From an uncultured Bacilli bacterium (lineage in GTDB: Bacteria; Bacillota_I; Bacilli_A; RF39; UBA660): DNA of 64,000 nucleotides. Shown piece after piece: positions 6,934 through 33,013 of this stretch. Every line of letters starts with the position of its first letter. Positions within the stretch are counted from its first letter, which is position 1. The DNA is taken from NCBI GenBank assembly GCA_934091055.1, contig CAKOKN010000004.1, forward strand, positions 2,293 to 66,292. The letters run 5' to 3'. Below the pieces are notes generated by a model. It searched no databases. It saw nothing but the letters and a program-made list of their open reading frames with translations, and was not told the DNA's origin. The translations under genes were made by a program, and so were the position numbers.

Positions 6934-7179
6934 TTATAAATCAGCCTGCTCTTGATATTGCTTCAAAAGCTCATTCAACACAAGAGGATCTCTCTCTATA
7001 AGTACAGAGATTTCTCCTTGATCATTAACTTCTTTTAACACTTCATATTTATCAGTAGGTTCTTCATTACTATCTAACTGTACTGCTAAAAAGTAATTGT
7101 CTTCATCTAAAGATGCTTTCAGTAACAAACCATAACTAACATTATTAGCTAAAGTTATCATTTCATCTACATTCATCAT
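6934..7179 (-). CDS. Small acidic protein, weakly DUF1292-like
   Basis: 81 aa. Its ATG overlaps the TAA of the upstream gene (TAATG), indicating translational coupling. A terminator hairpin lies at about 6893-6925. Confidence 0.55.
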   Translation of the reverse strand: MMNVDEMITLANNVSYGLLLKASLDEDNYFLAVQLDSNEEPTDKYEVLKEVNDQGEISVLIERDPLVLNELLKQYQEQADL

Positions 7180-9284
7180 TACTTACCTCTTCCTTTATTC
7201 TCTTCTAAACTATCAGTAAAGCTATTAATCTTCTCTTTAAGTAATTCTCTTTCTTCCATACCAAGTTTTAAACTCGTATCAATATCATTGTATAGAATAT
7301 TTAATCTATCTAATAAGAAAGCCTTACCATCTTCATTACTTTTTGGATAAAGAGATATCAATTCATTTATAGCATCATCACACTTATTATATACTGATTT
7401 ATTTTCTTCCTGTTCTACTAGAGAATCCGCTATATCACCAAATCTTTTATTCTCTGTATTAGTATTAACTTGTTCCGAAGCTTTAACTTCTTCTCTATTT
7501 TCTGTATTTACATTAGTTTGTTCTACAGTACTAACTTTTTCATTACTTTCTGTATTAGTCTGCTCTATAGTATTATCTACACTAGATACAGGTTCACTCT
7601 TCTTATTACCTTTCTTTCTAGAAGCTAACATACCAAGACCAGAAACTCCTAAACCACCTGCTCCAAGTATAGCCGCAGTCTTAGATATTGCAGCAACTTT
7701 TGCCACTTGTGCTGTAACAGCTGTTGTAGCAGTCGCAGCTAAATTAGCAAGTTCAGTACCTGCAAAAGTCCAAATACCAGTAGAACTATTAAATAAAGCT
7801 GTTTTACCAGTTAAACTCATAACACTCTTAGCAAGACCCTCATTAGCCAAATGAAGAGCTGCCTTTCCTGCCGCTGAAGCACCGTGCCAAGAAGCCGCAT
7901 TATTTACCATTGTACCAGTAATTGCAGACAACTGTTGTGCTTGTGAAAGTGCCGTAATAGCAGGCATAAGTTGTGCAAAAAGCATTACAACAGCAACTGT
8001 AATAGCAGTAATACCTAAAGCTATAATAATCTTTTTCTTATTTTTCTTAACCCAATTCCAAGCTTTTCTTCCAGCCACTTTAATAGGTTTTTCTTCCTTT
8101 ACTGGAGGAATAGGAGTTAAAGGTATATGCTCCACTAGATCTTTAGGAGGAACTACAGATAAACCTTTCTCCTCATTATTTACTGGAGTATCAGGAACAT
8201 TATCCTTCTTTTGATTATCCTGACCATTTGTATTAGTATTAGTTGTATACGTAGGTCTCCATCTACTATCAAAATTATTAACAGGAGTATTATCTTTAGG
8301 AGGATCTACCAATACAAATCCTTTATCTTCATTATTTGGTTCAACAGTATCAGTCTTTTGTGCTTCTACTTCTGGTGCATCTTTCTTGTCATTATCAAGT
8401 GAAGTTTCTTCTTCTTTCTTATCTTCTTTAGCAGCTTCAACTTTATTATTCATATCATTAATAAAATTCTCATTAATACTATCTATAATTTCAGGAGGTA
8501 ATAATTCCTTAGATTGTTTAATTTCCTTACTTCTTCTTTCAAGTTCTTCTTTTACTTCAGGATGATTATAATTAGGATTAGAATCGTTTAGACTTCTAAG
8601 AGCAGTTATATTCTCAATTACATTCTTATATGCATTAACAACTCTATTATTTTCTTCAAGTTTTGCTTTAGCATTCTCAATATGATTATTAATATTTGCT
8701 TCTTCTCTTAAAAACACCTCTAAAGGAATAGAAGTTTTAGCTTCTTGTAATTCTGAAAGCCTTGCCTCTAAATTATTTATTTCATTATTATATCTATTAA
8801 CTTCATTTTCAAAATAATCAATACCAACTTTATTATTCTCTACATTTTCTTGACTTTGATTATTTACTACTGAAGCATTATTCTGATTTTCCATAATAAA
8901 ACCATTATTTATACTACCAACAATCTCAGAAGGCAATAATTTTTTAGCCTCTTCTATTTCTCTACTTCTTCTTTCAAGTTCTTCTTTTACCTCAGGATGA
9001 TTATAATCTGGATTAGAATCGTTTAGACTTCTAAGAGCATTTATGTTATTAATTATATTGTTATACGCATTGATAACTTTATTATTCTCTTCAATCTTTG
9101 CTCTCGCAGTTTCAATATGATTATTAATATTTGCTTCTTCCCTTAAAAATTCATCTTTTGGCATCACACTATAAGTGAAACTATCAGCATTACCAGAATT
9201 ATGTAAAGTAACAAGTTCTTGCTCTAACTTCGCTATTTCATCAGTATACCTCTTCACTTCGTTTTCATAATAACTAATATCCAT
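7179..9284 (-). CDS. Large coiled-coil membrane protein with an internal ~125-aa duplication; function unknown
   Basis: The ORF runs 7179-9299. The probable start is the second ATG (9284), preceded by GGGAG. Two near-identical segments (about 8895-9281 and 8457-8822) share FLREEANINNHIE..AK.EENN.V.NAY.N.I.NI.ALRSLNDSNP.YNHPEVKEELERRS. Two hydrophobic helices flank an Ala/Thr/Gly-rich stretch of about 95 aa. The tail is acidic with EQTN-type short repeats. Confidence 0.6.
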   Translation of the reverse strand: MDISYYENEVKRYTDEIAKLEQELVTLHNSGNADSFTYSVMPKDEFLREEANINNHIETARAKIEENNKVINAYNNIINNINALRSLNDSNPDYNHPEVKEELERRSREIEEAKKLLPSEIVGSINNGFIMENQNNASVVNNQSQENVENNKVGIDYFENEVNRYNNEINNLEARLSELQEAKTSIPLEVFLREEANINNHIENAKAKLEENNRVVNAYKNVIENITALRSLNDSNPNYNHPEVKEELERRSKEIKQSKELLPPEIIDSINENFINDMNNKVEAAKEDKKEEETSLDNDKKDAPEVEAQKTDTVEPNNEDKGFVLVDPPKDNTPVNNFDSRWRPTYTTNTNTNGQDNQKKDNVPDTPVNNEEKGLSVVPPKDLVEHIPLTPIPPVKEEKPIKVAGRKAWNWVKKNKKKIIIALGITAITVAVVMLFAQLMPAITALSQAQQLSAITGTMVNNAASWHGASAAGKAALHLANEGLAKSVMSLTGKTALFNSSTGIWTFAGTELANLAATATTAVTAQVAKVAAISKTAAILGAGGLGVSGLGMLASRKKGNKKSEPVSSVDNTIEQTNTESNEKVSTVEQTNVNTENREEVKASEQVNTNTENKRFGDIADSLVEQEENKSVYNKCDDAINELISLYPKSNEDGKAFLLDRLNILYNDIDTSLKLGMEERELLKEKINSFTDSLEENKGRGK

Positions 9285-9392
9285 TTCAACAACTCCCATC
9301 TATATAGTTTCTTTTACATAAAATAATATAATTATAATGAATTTACAAAGATATTATAGCATACTATCAGAACTTATGCAAGAACTTAAAAA

Positions 9393-30076: not shown

Positions 30077-31684
30077 TTACCCCACAGTAAATGGATTATT
30101 CATAGTTCCATCACCACCAGTTATTGCATCAGCATTTAAAGAAACTACTGGACGGACTTTTATATTAATATTAACAGAATCACCACTAATAACAGTAGAG
30201 CCAATGACATTGCTTTCTACACTAGCATACCCATTATCTACATAAACAGGTGTCATAGTCCAAAAATGGCCCTTAAAATACAAATAAAAACTTTTATTAT
30301 CAATATATATCATATTATTTATATCGTATCCACCAGCTCCTGACATCACAATTTCATCAACAGTAAGTAACCCTATCGGAACAGTTAATGCTCCATTACC
30401 TTTAGATGTACTTACTGTAAATCTATCATTTACATTACTACACTTTAAACTTGGTGAATGATTAATAATATTTCGTTCCGTAGACATATATAATGTATCA
30501 TCAGTTCCATAACCTTCATTAGTAAACGTTAAACTAGATAAATTAGTAACCGAAGAAATACTTCTATCATTACAATAGATTGCATCTTCAATATAATCTG
30601 CATAACTAGATAAATTATTATTATACCAATTATCTAAATAAGTTTTTATTGTACTATCATTAATGTTCTTATGTGTTTCTGCATAACTTGAAGATCCTGG
30701 TGCACCATACATATAACCTACATAAGCGTTATCGTTATCACTGGTATTATAAACTGACGTGCCTATAGAGTTTTGTGTTACTATTCTAATAGAACCATCA
30801 CCATTTATTCTAACTATTCTCCACATTTGTCCTGCAAAAGATAAATAGTTATTGTCTACATCACCTCTAAAATAATATGTAGTACCAAAATCATCTACTG
30901 AAGAATATATTCCTTTAGTTCCATCACCCTGATTAGAAACAGAAGTCTTATCCCTCAAATTTTGCTTAACTCCACTATTACCACTTACTGTTGAAAAATC
31001 AGGTGTCTTCGTAGTATCTAAAACTATTGTACTATTTAAAGAGTGTAATTTTTGTAATGTGTAATTTGCGTCTATCTTTCCTTGATTTGCTGATGCTGAT
31101 ATTTTTCCTGAGAAAGAAGCTCCTATTACATCATTACCCGCTTTATTATTATCAATATAGATTACGATTATATATTTATTAATTTCAGTATTTGATAGTT
31201 GCTTAGTTAATATTTTTTTAGTGCCTGTACTTGTTATAGAGCCTGTTTTTTCAATATCAAAGGATTGATTTAATAAGTTTGCTACACTTACAGTACTGGT
31301 ACTAGTATTTTTTAATATAGCATACTTTAATGCTCCAACACTATTACCTGTAGTAAAAGCATCAGATAAAGATGTGATATTTAAGTATAGTGAACCATAG
31401 CCTTCTATACCACAAGTAGATTTAATACCTATATTGGCATAGGTTAATGCTATACCTTCTTTGATAGTGAACTTACTGTTACTATCTATTAGATCACTTT
31501 CATTCATTAACTTTACTGAAGCATTATTTATGTCTCCACCTTTAGTGTAGTCTATTGTGAAACAATCTGAATTTAGACCTATATTTATTTTGTCACTTGA
31601 CCAAGTTAGATAAGCTACTGTTACGCCTCCTAGTGCTAAGAGTATTATTATTCCTAGTATTAAATATTTCTTTTTCTTTTCCAT
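30077..31684 (-). CDS. Secreted/anchored protein with a TasA-type (SipW-like) N-terminal signal region; large C-terminal domain of unknown function
   Basis: MEKKKKYLILGIIILLALGGVTVAYLTWSSDKINIG resembles the N-termini of the 38133 and 38755 genes. ATG 31684 lies 9 nt after AAGGAG; the listed ORF begins at TTG 31693. The C-terminal half contains MWRIVRINGDGSIRIV and FWTMTP motifs. Confidence 0.6.
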   Translation of the reverse strand: MEKKKKYLILGIIILLALGGVTVAYLTWSSDKINIGLNSDCFTIDYTKGGDINNASVKLMNESDLIDSNSKFTIKEGIALTYANIGIKSTCGIEGYGSLYLNITSLSDAFTTGNSVGALKYAILKNTSTSTVSVANLLNQSFDIEKTGSITSTGTKKILTKQLSNTEINKYIIVIYIDNNKAGNDVIGASFSGKISASANQGKIDANYTLQKLHSLNSTIVLDTTKTPDFSTVSGNSGVKQNLRDKTSVSNQGDGTKGIYSSVDDFGTTYYFRGDVDNNYLSFAGQMWRIVRINGDGSIRIVTQNSIGTSVYNTSDNDNAYVGYMYGAPGSSSYAETHKNINDSTIKTYLDNWYNNNLSSYADYIEDAIYCNDRSISSVTNLSSLTFTNEGYGTDDTLYMSTERNIINHSPSLKCSNVNDRFTVSTSKGNGALTVPIGLLTVDEIVMSGAGGYDINNMIYIDNKSFYLYFKGHFWTMTPVYVDNGYASVESNVIGSTVISGDSVNINIKVRPVVSLNADAITGGDGTMNNPFTVG

Positions 31685-31711
31685 ATTATTCAACTCCTTA
31701 CTAAATAGAAA

Positions 31712-31758
31712 AAAGACTATAAAAAACTAGTTAATAAACTAGTTATTTTACAGTCTTT
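31712..31758 (-). terminator. Very strong intrinsic terminator / attenuator 12 nt upstream of the RBS of the 30077-31684 gene
   Basis: In the minus-strand RNA: a 13-bp outer stem (AAAGACUGUAAAA / UUUUAUAGUCUUU, whose G-U pair exists only in this orientation), an 8-bp inner stem (AACUAGUU x2) and loop UAUU, followed by UUUUUUC. Confidence 0.65.
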
Positions 31759-31788
31759 AATATATTATTATTTGTATAAAGTCTTATT

Positions 31789-31857
31789 TTATAAGATATT
31801 ACAAGCCCCCCCCCTAATTAACAACGAGTTAACGATTTTAAATTCACTATTAATCAT
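31789..31857 (-). CDS. 22-codon leader ORF containing the G9 tract (hypothetical)
   Basis: AAAGGAG, 9 nt, then ATG. Sequence is MINSEFKIVNSLLIRGGACNIL. It lies between a sigma-A-like promoter and the terminator at 31712-31758. Confidence 0.35.
   Translation of the reverse strand: MINSEFKIVNSLLIRGGACNIL
31806..31814. repeat. C9/G9 homopolymer tract
   Basis: acaagCCCCCCCCCtaatta. I saw no other G/C homopolymer of this length in this AT-rich window. Confidence 0.85.
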
Positions 31858-31894
31858 AGGGTTCAGCTCCTTTCTTCTTTATACTTACAAATAA

Positions 31895-31923
31895 ATAATA
31901 TCATACTTTGTTAATTTATACAA
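31895..31923 (-). promoter_or_regulatory. Putative sigma-A promoter driving the leader ORF and the 30077 gene
   Basis: On the minus strand: TTGTAT, a 17-nt spacer ending in TGA, then TATTAT. It lies about 25 nt upstream of the leader RBS. Confidence 0.5.
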
Positions 31924-31982
31924 GTAGAAAAAGAAAAAATAATAAAATTTATTTTATAGACTTAGAATAAGACTATAAAATA

Positions 31983-32008
31983 CCTCTTAAGACCTTAGGC
32001 TTAAGAGG
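31983..32008. repeat. Hairpin with conserved loop ACCTTAGG
   Basis: CCTCTTAAG-accttagg-CTTAAGAGG, about 20 nt downstream of the deacetylase gene. Confidence 0.7.
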
Positions 32009-32026
32009 ATATATAATATATAATAA

Positions 32027-33013
32027 TTATCTAGCATATCCATATACCTTACCCTTTTCTAAAGAAATATTCTTATAATAAAATAACTCTGGTACTGTAA
32101 CAAAAGTATAACCATTATTTAATAATTTAGGTATAATAATATTTAAACTATTAGAAGTAGCACTATATATATCGTGCATTAATATTATATCCCCATCTTT
32201 TACTTTATTAACTACCCTACTAGCTATCTTCTTAGAATTATGATACTTCCAATCTAAAGTATCAATATCCCATATAATAATAGGAAGATTACTACACTTC
32301 TTTATCTTCTTATTAAAAGATCCATAACTAGGTCTTAATAATCTAGGACTACTACCAGTTACTTCAAATATTAAATTACTAGTACTATCTATTTCCTCTT
32401 TTATCTTATCTTCTTTATACTTAGTAAGTAATAAATGATTATAAGTATGATTACCTATCTCCATACCACTATCTTTCATTCTTTTTAGTATATCTTCATT
32501 CCCTTTTATTTTAGATCCCAATACAAAGAAAGTAGCTTTAACATTATATTTATTTAATATATCTAATACTTTATTAGTATTATAATTAGGACCATCATCA
32601 AAAGTAAGAGCTATATATTTATTATCTTTATCTTTTATATTATTAGTTATATAATCAAAATCAAACATATTATTATCAGTCTTAGTAACACTACTATTAT
32701 CTTTATCTATAATAAAAGAATTACTATCATAATTTATTTTATTATTATTAAATATATATTTATAAAAAGTCAAATAATATAAATTATTCTTATCTATATA
32801 ATCATAATCTATAAATACACTACCCTTATTATTAGTAAAATCATTTAAAAAATCACTTATATAATTATCTATATTATCATTACTAAAAAAAGGATAACTA
32901 ATATTCTTAGTATCAGATATTATCTCTTTATTTATTAATTCTTTTTCTTTATCTAATACTAATATCATTATTGTAATAATAATAAAAGGTATTAAAAGAT
33001 ATCTTATTTTCAT
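32027..33013 (-). CDS. Polysaccharide deacetylase (NodB domain; PdaA/PdaB-like)
   Basis: N-terminal TM. NodB motifs are ALTFDDGP and GNHTYNH, plus LLRPSYG. Confidence 0.85.
   Translation of the reverse strand: MKIRYLLIPFIIITIMILVLDKEKELINKEIISDTKNISYPFFSNDNIDNYISDFLNDFTNNKGSVFIDYDYIDKNNLYYLTFYKYIFNNNKINYDSNSFIIDKDNSSVTKTDNNMFDFDYITNNIKDKDNKYIALTFDDGPNYNTNKVLDILNKYNVKATFFVLGSKIKGNEDILKRMKDSGMEIGNHTYNHLLLTKYKEDKIKEEIDSTSNLIFEVTGSSPRLLRPSYGSFNKKIKKCSNLPIIIWDIDTLDWKYHNSKKIASRVVNKVKDGDIILMHDIYSATSNSLNIIIPKLLNNGYTFVTVPELFYYKNISLEKGKVYGYAR

Follow-up and report, generated by a model that had tools for sequence, protein, structure and literature searches.

The 64-kb stretch of contig CAKOKN010000004.1 from an uncultured Bacilli bacterium that was analysed here, referred to below as the window (27% G+C), carries on its minus strand a gene for a 535-aa secreted or membrane-anchored protein. 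The leader of this gene contains a run of nine G residues within a short open reading frame (ORF), followed by a strong hairpin and the ribosome-binding site of the gene itself. An earlier examination of the sequence, called here the original prediction, had proposed that slipped-strand changes in the length of the G tract toggle expression by ribosome-mediated antitermination. Comparison of this leader with its relatives makes it probable that it is a contingency switch built into a leader-peptide attenuator, flipping surface-protein genes on and off. The features of the locus are listed in the direction of transcription.

31983–32008, minus strand: terminator of the upstream polysaccharide-deacetylase gene, called by the terminator scanner
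31895–31923, minus strand: promoter, with a -35 TTGTAT (31923–31918), a 17-nt spacer, a -10 TATTAT (31900–31895) and an extended -10 TGaTATTAT (31903–31895)
31867–31873, minus strand: Shine-Dalgarno sequence (SD) of the leader ORF, AAAGGAG, 9 nt ahead of the ATG (31857)
31858–31861, minus strand: C-run CCCU in the spacer between SD and AUG, 5' strand of helix P1, with the G tract as its predicted partner in both the minimum free energy (MFE) and the centroid fold
31789–31857, minus strand: leader ORF of 22 codons plus stop, MINSEFKIVNSLLIRGGACNIL, in the G9 allele, predicted OFF
31815–31856, minus strand: predicted hairpin P2 within the leader ORF, with a 13-bp stem around GTTAAC-N5-GTTAAT, adjoining the G tract on its 5' side
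31806–31814, minus strand: G9 homopolymer (C9 on the plus strand), codons AGG GGG GGG G.., 3' strand of helix P1
31712–31758, minus strand: hairpin of 13 + 8 bp with one bulge, predicted terminator/attenuator (-21.1 kcal/mol, z = -5.6)
31743–31745, minus strand: TAA at +12, within the hairpin's 5' arm, closing the alternative (G8 or G11) frame, which is the predicted ON frame of the window leader type
31703–31711, minus strand: U-rich tail UUUCUAUUU after the hairpin, read from the sequence
31694–31699, minus strand: SD of the main gene, AAGGAG, 12 nt past the hairpin and 9 nt ahead of the ATG (31684)
30077–31684, minus strand: controlled gene, 535-aa secreted or membrane-anchored protein with an N-terminal hydrophobic anchor

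The promoter, the AAAGGAG sequence with its 22-codon ORF, the 21-bp hairpin and the short distance from the hairpin to the main SD had all been recognised in the original prediction, and each was found again on re-reading. It had overlooked the extended -10, a class to which the promoter is assigned because TG is present at 31903–31902, and also helix P1, in which the SD-AUG spacer pairs with the G tract. A consensus promoter scanner did not list the promoter of the window leader, because the -35 fits the consensus at only three of six positions. The same TTG-17-TGnTAnnAT arrangement was found by eye upstream of five other leaders (L150, L022, L054, L069 and L145), and a strong SD at a similar spacing precedes the leader ORF wherever sufficient upstream sequence is available. 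The terminator of the deacetylase gene (32008–31983) is predicted to insulate the cassette from upstream transcription, and with the main SD just 12 nt beyond the hairpin there is little room for a second promoter. None of 200 shuffled sequences folded as well as the hairpin (31758–31712). The terminator scanner did not call it, probably because of the bulge and the A-U-rich base, and a scan of positions 31500–32200 on both strands against Rfam 15 at a permissive threshold gave only chance-level matches (E of at least 3, bit scores far below gathering).

The G9 tract occupies codons 15–18 of the leader ORF and, as had been claimed, it is the sole long G/C homopolymer, with no other run of at least 7 G or C in the 64 kb. 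Runs of exactly nine are expected about 0.011 times from the base composition of the window. The location of the repeat within a translatable ORF that has its own SD holds in all relatives, and we infer that the tract is the hypermutable element of the cassette. The first stop in each of the three frames that can follow the tract was located leader by leader, with positions counted from the start of AAGACT. In the window these stops lie at -34, -44 and +12 relative to the hairpin. The G9 allele ends at 31789, 34 nt short of the hairpin, while G8 runs on to the TAA at 31745–31743 in the 5' arm and G10 gives GGC TTG TAA; the effects of G8 and G10 are those given in the original prediction. A 22-codon ORF would be insignificant alone, and the significance of this one comes from the comparative data. 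Genetic code 4, in which TGA is a sense codon, is unlikely, as eight of the 57 long ORFs end in TGA and the ORFs have no interruptions when read with table 11. Table 11 applies because TGA serves as a stop, and the stops relevant to the analysis of the leader frames are TAA and TAG whatever the code.

Metagenome contigs were scanned with the conserved 5' arm of the hairpin, AAGACTRTRAARTAACTA, and 120 stretches were obtained. About 39 of these include a matching 3' arm and/or a G tract 39–62 nt upstream, and the remainder are chance matches. In viral contigs all 26 matches to the hairpin pattern were chance matches and no true cassette was found, leading us to reject a phage origin of the cassette. 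A genome scan detected only relatives with at most 63% identity, and it was exact-protein look-ups that led to the window's own species. Among named genomes, the closest are 'uncultured Tenericutes bacterium UMGS1739' and Bacilli metagenome-assembled genomes. About 45 related leaders with the cassette were recovered, from gut 'Tenericutes'/Bacilli metagenomes, and their comparison indicates that the combination of G tract, leader ORF and hairpin is a conserved, length-variable family in these uncultured organisms.

The cassette opens with an extended -10 promoter, after which come a strong SD, a C-run and the ATG of a short ORF. Beyond the G tract lie an AT-rich linker of 31–56 nt, the hairpin, a U tail, an SD and the gene. 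The family hairpin follows the pattern AAAGACTATGAAATAACTA...TAG...TTTCATAGTCTTT, and the GTTAAC-N5-GTTAA(T/C) motif of P2 is kept in most leader types. Both UMGS1739 paralogues have G10 (L003) or G9 (L004) about 120 nt ahead of the start codon, then a similar hairpin, and the same layout precedes the homologue P0058, which is 60% identical to the window protein. The downstream products begin M-(E/N)-K-K-K followed by a hydrophobic helix. They span several families with a common N-terminal module, namely homologues of the window protein, proteins with 26-residue PARCEL repeats and a leucine-rich repeat (LRR) adhesin-like protein, which suggests that one regulatory module is reused over a multigene surface repertoire. 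At five loci (L054, L097, L145, L076 and L126) the one cassette was seen before differing surface-protein families, some of them similar to DGR (diversity-generating retroelement) targets, with a similar N-terminal signal or anchor (e.g. ...GxTYAxxxWxS).

Comparison of the locus in related genomes, which had been proposed as a check, revealed tract lengths from G6 to G11, with nine as the mode, and differences were found even between loci encoding identical proteins. Three loci encoding the identical protein P0058 in metagenome samples have G10, G10 and G9 between identical flanks. At a locus orthologous and syntenic to the window (deacetylase, leader, gene, dnaG), the identical protein P0011 is preceded by G10 followed by TT, G9 followed by T and G11 followed by TT in three samples. 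From this polymorphism between samples we infer slippage within a population. In other leaders the tract is interrupted by A with its length unchanged, as in L137, which has GGAGAGGGG where L128 has G9 and L138 has G7, and in the L030 lineage, which has AAGAGGAG where L055 has AAGGGGGG. The pattern is that of a contingency locus with occasional locked alleles, as judged from the alleles sampled.

The frame selected differs between these two kinds of allele. Among distinct alleles with a tract of at least 7 G, 12 direct the frame into or through the hairpin and 17 lead to an early stop. Nine of the ten distinct alleles with interrupted or short tracts lead into or through it (e.g. L030, L137, L060, L111 and L125). 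By our count, these stabilised alleles represent about six independent lineages, and the genes behind them are open to the contig limits. Such a bias is the pattern expected if the through frame were the expressed one and the tract could safely be lost only in that state.

In each leader, only one of the three frames after the tract reaches the hairpin, and the two others stop 17–47 nt upstream of it. In most leaders this through frame is closed only in the 3' arm, by a conserved TAG whose position is +38 or +41, the exceptions being the window type (WIN and L001, +12), L055 (+7) and L003 (-1). The two early stops lie at about -24 to -36 in most relatives. Of 29 distinct linkers, 26 have no stop in the frame that is in phase with the hairpin; dinucleotide shuffles leave this frame open in 5–22% of cases per linker. 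The linkers fall, again by our count, into about 8–9 independent sequence types of differing length, and on our own estimate the combined probability of such an open frame arising by chance would be near 1e-4. The indel that distinguishes L128 from L138 is of 9 nt and in frame. The through-frame peptides finish in a conserved ...NNNI(N/D)KDYEITNRNISDFS, which is encoded by the hairpin itself.

The hairpin is also conserved as a structure. In an alignment of 18 distinct hairpin sequences, 99.1% of cells are standard pairs, and when the partner columns were slid the pairing fell to 39–59%. Three pairs have changed on both sides (e.g. G-C in nine sequences and A-U in nine). The original prediction had pointed out that G-U pairing is possible only in the minus-strand RNA; this was borne out across the hairpin variants, in which G-U occurs at four pairs that could form only in RNA of the gene strand. 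These data support a function of the hairpin as an RNA structure. Its mean column identity of 89% is above that of the genes it precedes. A double constraint, that of keeping both the stem and an open frame, can explain this conservation; gene conversion or a binding protein may do so instead.

The third conserved element is helix P1. In the MFE folds of 26 of 27 leaders the SD-AUG spacer pairs with the G tract or with the sequence just after it. In the window leader, CCCU (31861–31858) is predicted to pair with GGGG in the tract and GAGCU with GGCUU. As the C content of the gene strand is only about 8.5%, chance would not be expected to place a C-run here in nearly all leaders. Decay of the tract has gone together with changes in the spacer (CUUCUU/AAGAGG in L030 and ACUCUC/GAGAGGGU in L125), and in the L128 type, which lacks the C-run, the spacer GGTAATAAATA is perfectly complementary to TATTTATTACC directly after the tract. 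In the predicted folds P1 encloses the first 14–25 codons of the leader and covers the start codon. Its presence points to a further level of control, and its role is probably to gate or time translation of the leader. It could restrict this translation to ribosomes that load before the polymerase has reached the tract, could serve as a pause hairpin keeping ribosome and polymerase in step, or could make the effect of tract length partly graded.

The observed anatomy of the leader, the polymorphism of its tract, the conservation of frame and hairpin and the distribution of alleles lead us to the following model, in which termination at the hairpin, translation of the leader and the direction of the effect are deduced from the comparison. 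Transcription would begin at the extended -10 promoter, and a ribosome would load at the strong SD and translate the short ORF that holds the G tract. Slippage in replication would alter the length of the tract and thereby decide which of the three frames follows it. In the two early-stop frames the hairpin would fold behind RNA polymerase and most transcripts would end at the U tail, an OFF or low state. The third frame would take the ribosome onto the hairpin, which would be blocked so that the surface-protein gene is transcribed, the ON state. Through-frame ribosomes would be released about 15–20 nt from the main SD. The G9 allele of the window is accordingly predicted to be OFF, and G8 or G11 would turn it ON. 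The switch first proposed thus has comparative support in the tract polymorphism, the open frame, the occurrence of both allele states and the locked alleles, and some details have had to be corrected. Its ON frame, ending in the 5' arm, is that of the window leader type (TAA at 31745–31743), whereas in most relatives the ribosome would read on to the TAG in the 3' arm.

Several points weigh against this model. The tract differences are known between assemblies and could in part be homopolymer consensus errors, as in L153 and L152, which differ by one G and one T. Within the window leader type, six of the seven orthologous alleles have an early stop (WIN and L150–L154), and only L001 (ERZ4561457), which encodes the identical 535-aa protein, reaches the hairpin. 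A 1-nt deletion behind the tract brings its frame into the 5' arm, and the full through frame is closed in this leader type. Termination is a prediction for a hairpin whose base is A-U rich and on which the terminator scanner was silent. P1 would occlude the start region of the leader and cut its translation, and the simple model needs no P1. In Bacillus subtilis transcription and translation are weakly coupled, though tight coupling has been seen in Mycoplasma pneumoniae.

The alternative that survives best is a heritable frame switch that works mainly on translation. Here the hairpin would be leaky, ribosomes reading through would unfold it and re-initiate at the main SD, and an early stop would leave a folded hairpin beside the SD and no coupled ribosomes. 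The composition of the hairpin base and the silence of the scanner suit this explanation, as does the position of the through-frame TAG, only 5–7 nt before the U tail and about 15–20 nt before the main SD. That SD, however, lies outside the hairpin and is strong alone, and three of the frames stop too far away for re-initiation, those of the window type and L055 within the 5' arm and that of L003 just before it. In the Streptococcus gallolyticus system described below the effect was shown at the mRNA level (PMC3894217). We regard translational coupling as an unlikely sole mechanism, and it may well act together with antitermination. All of the other alternatives are disfavoured by the conservation of the frame and the bias of the locked alleles.

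A little less likely again is that the G tract is kept mainly as a strand of an RNA structure, either P1 or the target of a C/U-rich small RNA (sRNA) or protein, with graded tuning as the outcome and any effects on frame secondary. The prediction of P1 in nearly every leader examined, upheld by differing sequences in the L128 type, the L030 type and L125, favours such a role, and a precedent is known in Helicobacter pylori, where the sRNA RepG reads a variable G-repeat in the leader of the tlpB mRNA (PMC8295292). Left unexplained are the one frame that stays open for 25–30 AT-rich codons through the hairpin in about eight diverged linker types, and the stabilised tracts that lie in the through frame in nine of ten alleles. 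Moreover, 9–11 G's would pair equally well with 3–5 C's at any length, and the region gave no Rfam family match.

Slippage of RNA polymerase on the G9 tract, giving each cell a mixture of all three frames and hence a fixed, non-heritable level of read-through, is very improbable. Transcriptional slippage is known at runs of at least nine identical bases and could account for some expression from OFF alleles. The DNA tract itself, though, differs among samples and the locked alleles are fixed in one frame, neither of which would matter if the frame were randomised in the RNA. Least credible is that there is no switch, the tract and small ORF being neutral, hypermutable sequence between genes ahead of an ordinary terminator-like hairpin, or the differences in length being assembly artefacts; homopolymers are indeed error-prone in short-read assemblies. 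Yet a G/C run of nine is expected 0.011 times in the window, dozens of leaders before genes with <30% identity have a tract in the corresponding position, and frame, hairpin and P1 are all conserved.

The 535-aa protein has no sequence match in Pfam, NCBIfam or PDB. Exact copies were found in human-gut metagenomes, including a Hadza sample. The gene is followed directly by dnaG, then rpoD and trmK, and upstream of it are genes for a polysaccharide deacetylase, an HD-domain protein and an MscS channel. The window protein is 56–60% identical to L003 and P0058, which are variable proteins of diversity-generating retroelements (DGR). Downstream of the gene at the P0058 loci come a template repeat (TR), an Avd-like gene and a reverse transcriptase (RT). 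Pairs of variable repeat (VR) and TR were found in L022 (2688–2786 and 3044–3142), L003 (4046–4146 and 4407–4507) and L094 (1847–1947 and 2203–2303), with the TR about 356 nt downstream. The mismatches between VR and TR fall almost only at adenines of the template, all 18 of them in L003 and 19 of 22 in L022. Such a bias is characteristic of a DGR, and the homologues are therefore DGR targets.

In the window, no repeat of the 3' end of the gene was found within the 64 kb, and tblastn detected no match to Avd or RT. A local DGR was rejected as there is no TR, Avd or RT in this stretch, and the region of the gene equivalent to the VR is AT-rich and without GC-rich flanks. On these grounds we regard the window gene as an orphan DGR target or a former one, except if it is acted on in trans by a DGR located elsewhere in the genome. 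A role for the hairpin as a DGR target-recognition element was also considered and rejected, because it lies 5' of the gene and is also found before PARCEL-repeat and LRR proteins that have no DGR-target-like C-terminal domain.

A broader proposal, which we put forward only tentatively, is that the cassette is a dedicated module, conserved in sequence and present in many copies per genome in an uncultured gut lineage, combining a homopolymer frame switch, antitermination and a start-occluding helix that uses the G tract. In such a module tract length would set both the frame and a graded rate of leader translation, and the module would gate DGR-diversified receptors. If this is true, two independent systems of hypervariation act on the same proteins, one determining whether the protein is displayed and the other what it binds.

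A number of further observations concern the edges of the cassette. The identical 535-aa gene with its leader lies behind the polysaccharide deacetylase gene in the window and L150–L154 and behind a tRNA-guanine transglycosylase gene in L001 (window 31940–32030 compared with L001 2650–2760). The similarity between the window and L001 starts just upstream of the -35, placing a rearrangement breakpoint at the edge of the cassette. In L151–L154, an insertion of about 85 nt lies between the promoter and the leader SD (about 90–175 nt upstream of the SD), and the length of the 5' untranslated part of the leader therefore varies within the species group; the insertion is not present in the window or L150. 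A palindrome similar to the outer stem of the leader hairpin, TTTTATAGTCTTA-TTC-TAAGTCTATAAAA, is found on the minus strand at 31953–31981, between the upstream terminator and the promoter; this palindrome is kept in L150 but missing in other leader types. An invertible promoter, for which AAGACTATAAAA-like copies at 31953–31985 and in the hairpin were considered, was rejected as the main mechanism because the upstream copy is absent from other leader types (L022 and L001), and a leader in the opposite orientation was not seen in any locus read.

At two loci that encode the identical P0058 in independent assemblies (L023 at about 1150–1200 and L028 at 1–46), a GC-rich TTGCCCGGCATACATACTGAGC stands in place of the hairpin, with the U tail and SD following immediately. 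The available part of this replacement is only 22 nt long, and it may be an artefact, the end of a mobile element or a recombination junction. Many contigs end in or near the cassette, at their 5' ends in L002, L025–L029, L072, L091 and L140 and at their 3' ends in L068, L090, L128, L142 and L148. The breaks most likely arise because the linker and hairpin form a near-identical multi-copy repeat, and heterogeneity of the tract was set aside as their cause since the repeat explains them more simply. These repeats will systematically fragment assemblies at the surface-protein genes of such organisms.

Elsewhere in the window, the strands are asymmetric in composition (11892 C and 5424 G on the plus strand) and nearly all of the long ORFs are on the minus strand. 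A direct repeat of 279 nt (82% identical, 435-nt spacing) at 8443–9156, inside a 706-aa ORF (7179–9299), points to a repeated domain in another large protein.

If the proposed switch is real, it is a general-purpose cassette for many surface-protein genes (DGR variable, PARCEL-repeat and LRR adhesin-like) in a widespread uncultured human-gut lineage, and ON/OFF phase variation is layered on DGR hypermutation of the same protein family. The signature of SD, C-run, ATG, G tract and AAGACTAT...ATAGTCTT hairpin can be used to locate such switches in metagenomes, and the ON/OFF state could then be read off the tract length in gut samples. A search of the literature found no report of this cassette, no homopolymer version of such an attenuator and no phase-variable control of DGR targets.

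Elements of the cassette are familiar from other systems. The poly-G/poly-C loci of Campylobacter, Neisseria and Helicobacter and the homopolymer switches of Mycoplasma likewise have tracts of about 8–11 bases in AT-rich genomes, are associated with genes for surface proteins, are polymorphic and include locked alleles. Their tracts lie in the structural gene or the promoter spacer, whereas the tract of the cassette lies in a separate leader ORF and would act through the hairpin. In Clostridioides difficile, phase variation of cwpV depends on an intrinsic terminator that is formed or not formed in the leader RNA of a surface-protein gene. The switch there is site-specific inversion by RecV and no leader peptide is involved; in the cassette it would be slippage of a repeat within the leader peptide.

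In classical attenuation, exemplified by trp, his and pyrBI of Escherichia coli, the position of the ribosome on the leader ORF decides whether the intrinsic terminator forms (PMC3894217). The signal is physiological (charged tRNA or nucleotides), reversible in the cell and read through alternative antiterminator hairpins, whereas that of the cassette would be a heritable frameshift; alternative antiterminator pairing was not found in the cassette. The variable G-repeat in the leader of H. pylori tlpB pairs with the C/U-rich sRNA RepG, a trans-acting partner, giving graded post-transcriptional control (PMC8295292). The C-run of the cassette, in contrast, is in cis, at the ribosome-binding region of the leader itself, and the frame presumed to be translated is conserved.

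The closest parallel is in S. gallolyticus, where the leader-peptide genes of pil1 and pil3 contain GCAGA repeats that vary by slipped-strand mispairing (Danne et al. 2014; PMC3894217). In-frame alleles, encoding short peptides that end about 28–39 nt before a stem-loop terminator, give low expression and out-of-frame alleles that end within or after it give high expression, and mutants in the start codon and the stop codon and deletion of the terminator confirmed ribosome-mediated antitermination (PMC3894217). The belief stated in the original prediction, that the combination of a contingency locus with leader-peptide attenuation was undescribed, was mistaken, because the same logic had been described and proven genetically for these loci. 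In the literature searched it had been demonstrated only for the two pilus loci of this one streptococcus. If the window cassette works in the way proposed, the mechanism has evolved independently with a mononucleotide tract and is far more widespread than in S. gallolyticus.

The cassette and the pilus loci are alike in having a repeat inside a leader ORF, a hairpin downstream, a stop whose position relative to that hairpin differs between alleles, and genes for surface structures downstream. With a repeat in the leader ORF, a length that varies between samples and alternative stops before and within or after the hairpin, the cassette is a candidate member of the pil1-type class, which is a mechanistic class and not a homology family. 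A dependence of read-through on leader translation, demonstrated for pil1 with mutants, is predicted for the cassette and has indirect backing in the conserved open frame and in the locked alleles of the through frame. The repeat of pil1 and pil3 is a pentanucleotide in 13–23 copies and that of the window a G9 homopolymer. There are two loci per genome in the streptococcus and no sequence homology to the cassette, which occurs in uncultured 'Tenericutes'/Bacilli in multiple copies and before several protein families. The pilus switches have been proven genetically, and the case for the cassette comes from comparison. Unlike pil1 and pil3, the cassette would be ON in only one of three frames, closing at a conserved TAG in the 3' arm of the hairpin, and has an additional predicted helix between the SD spacer and the G tract.

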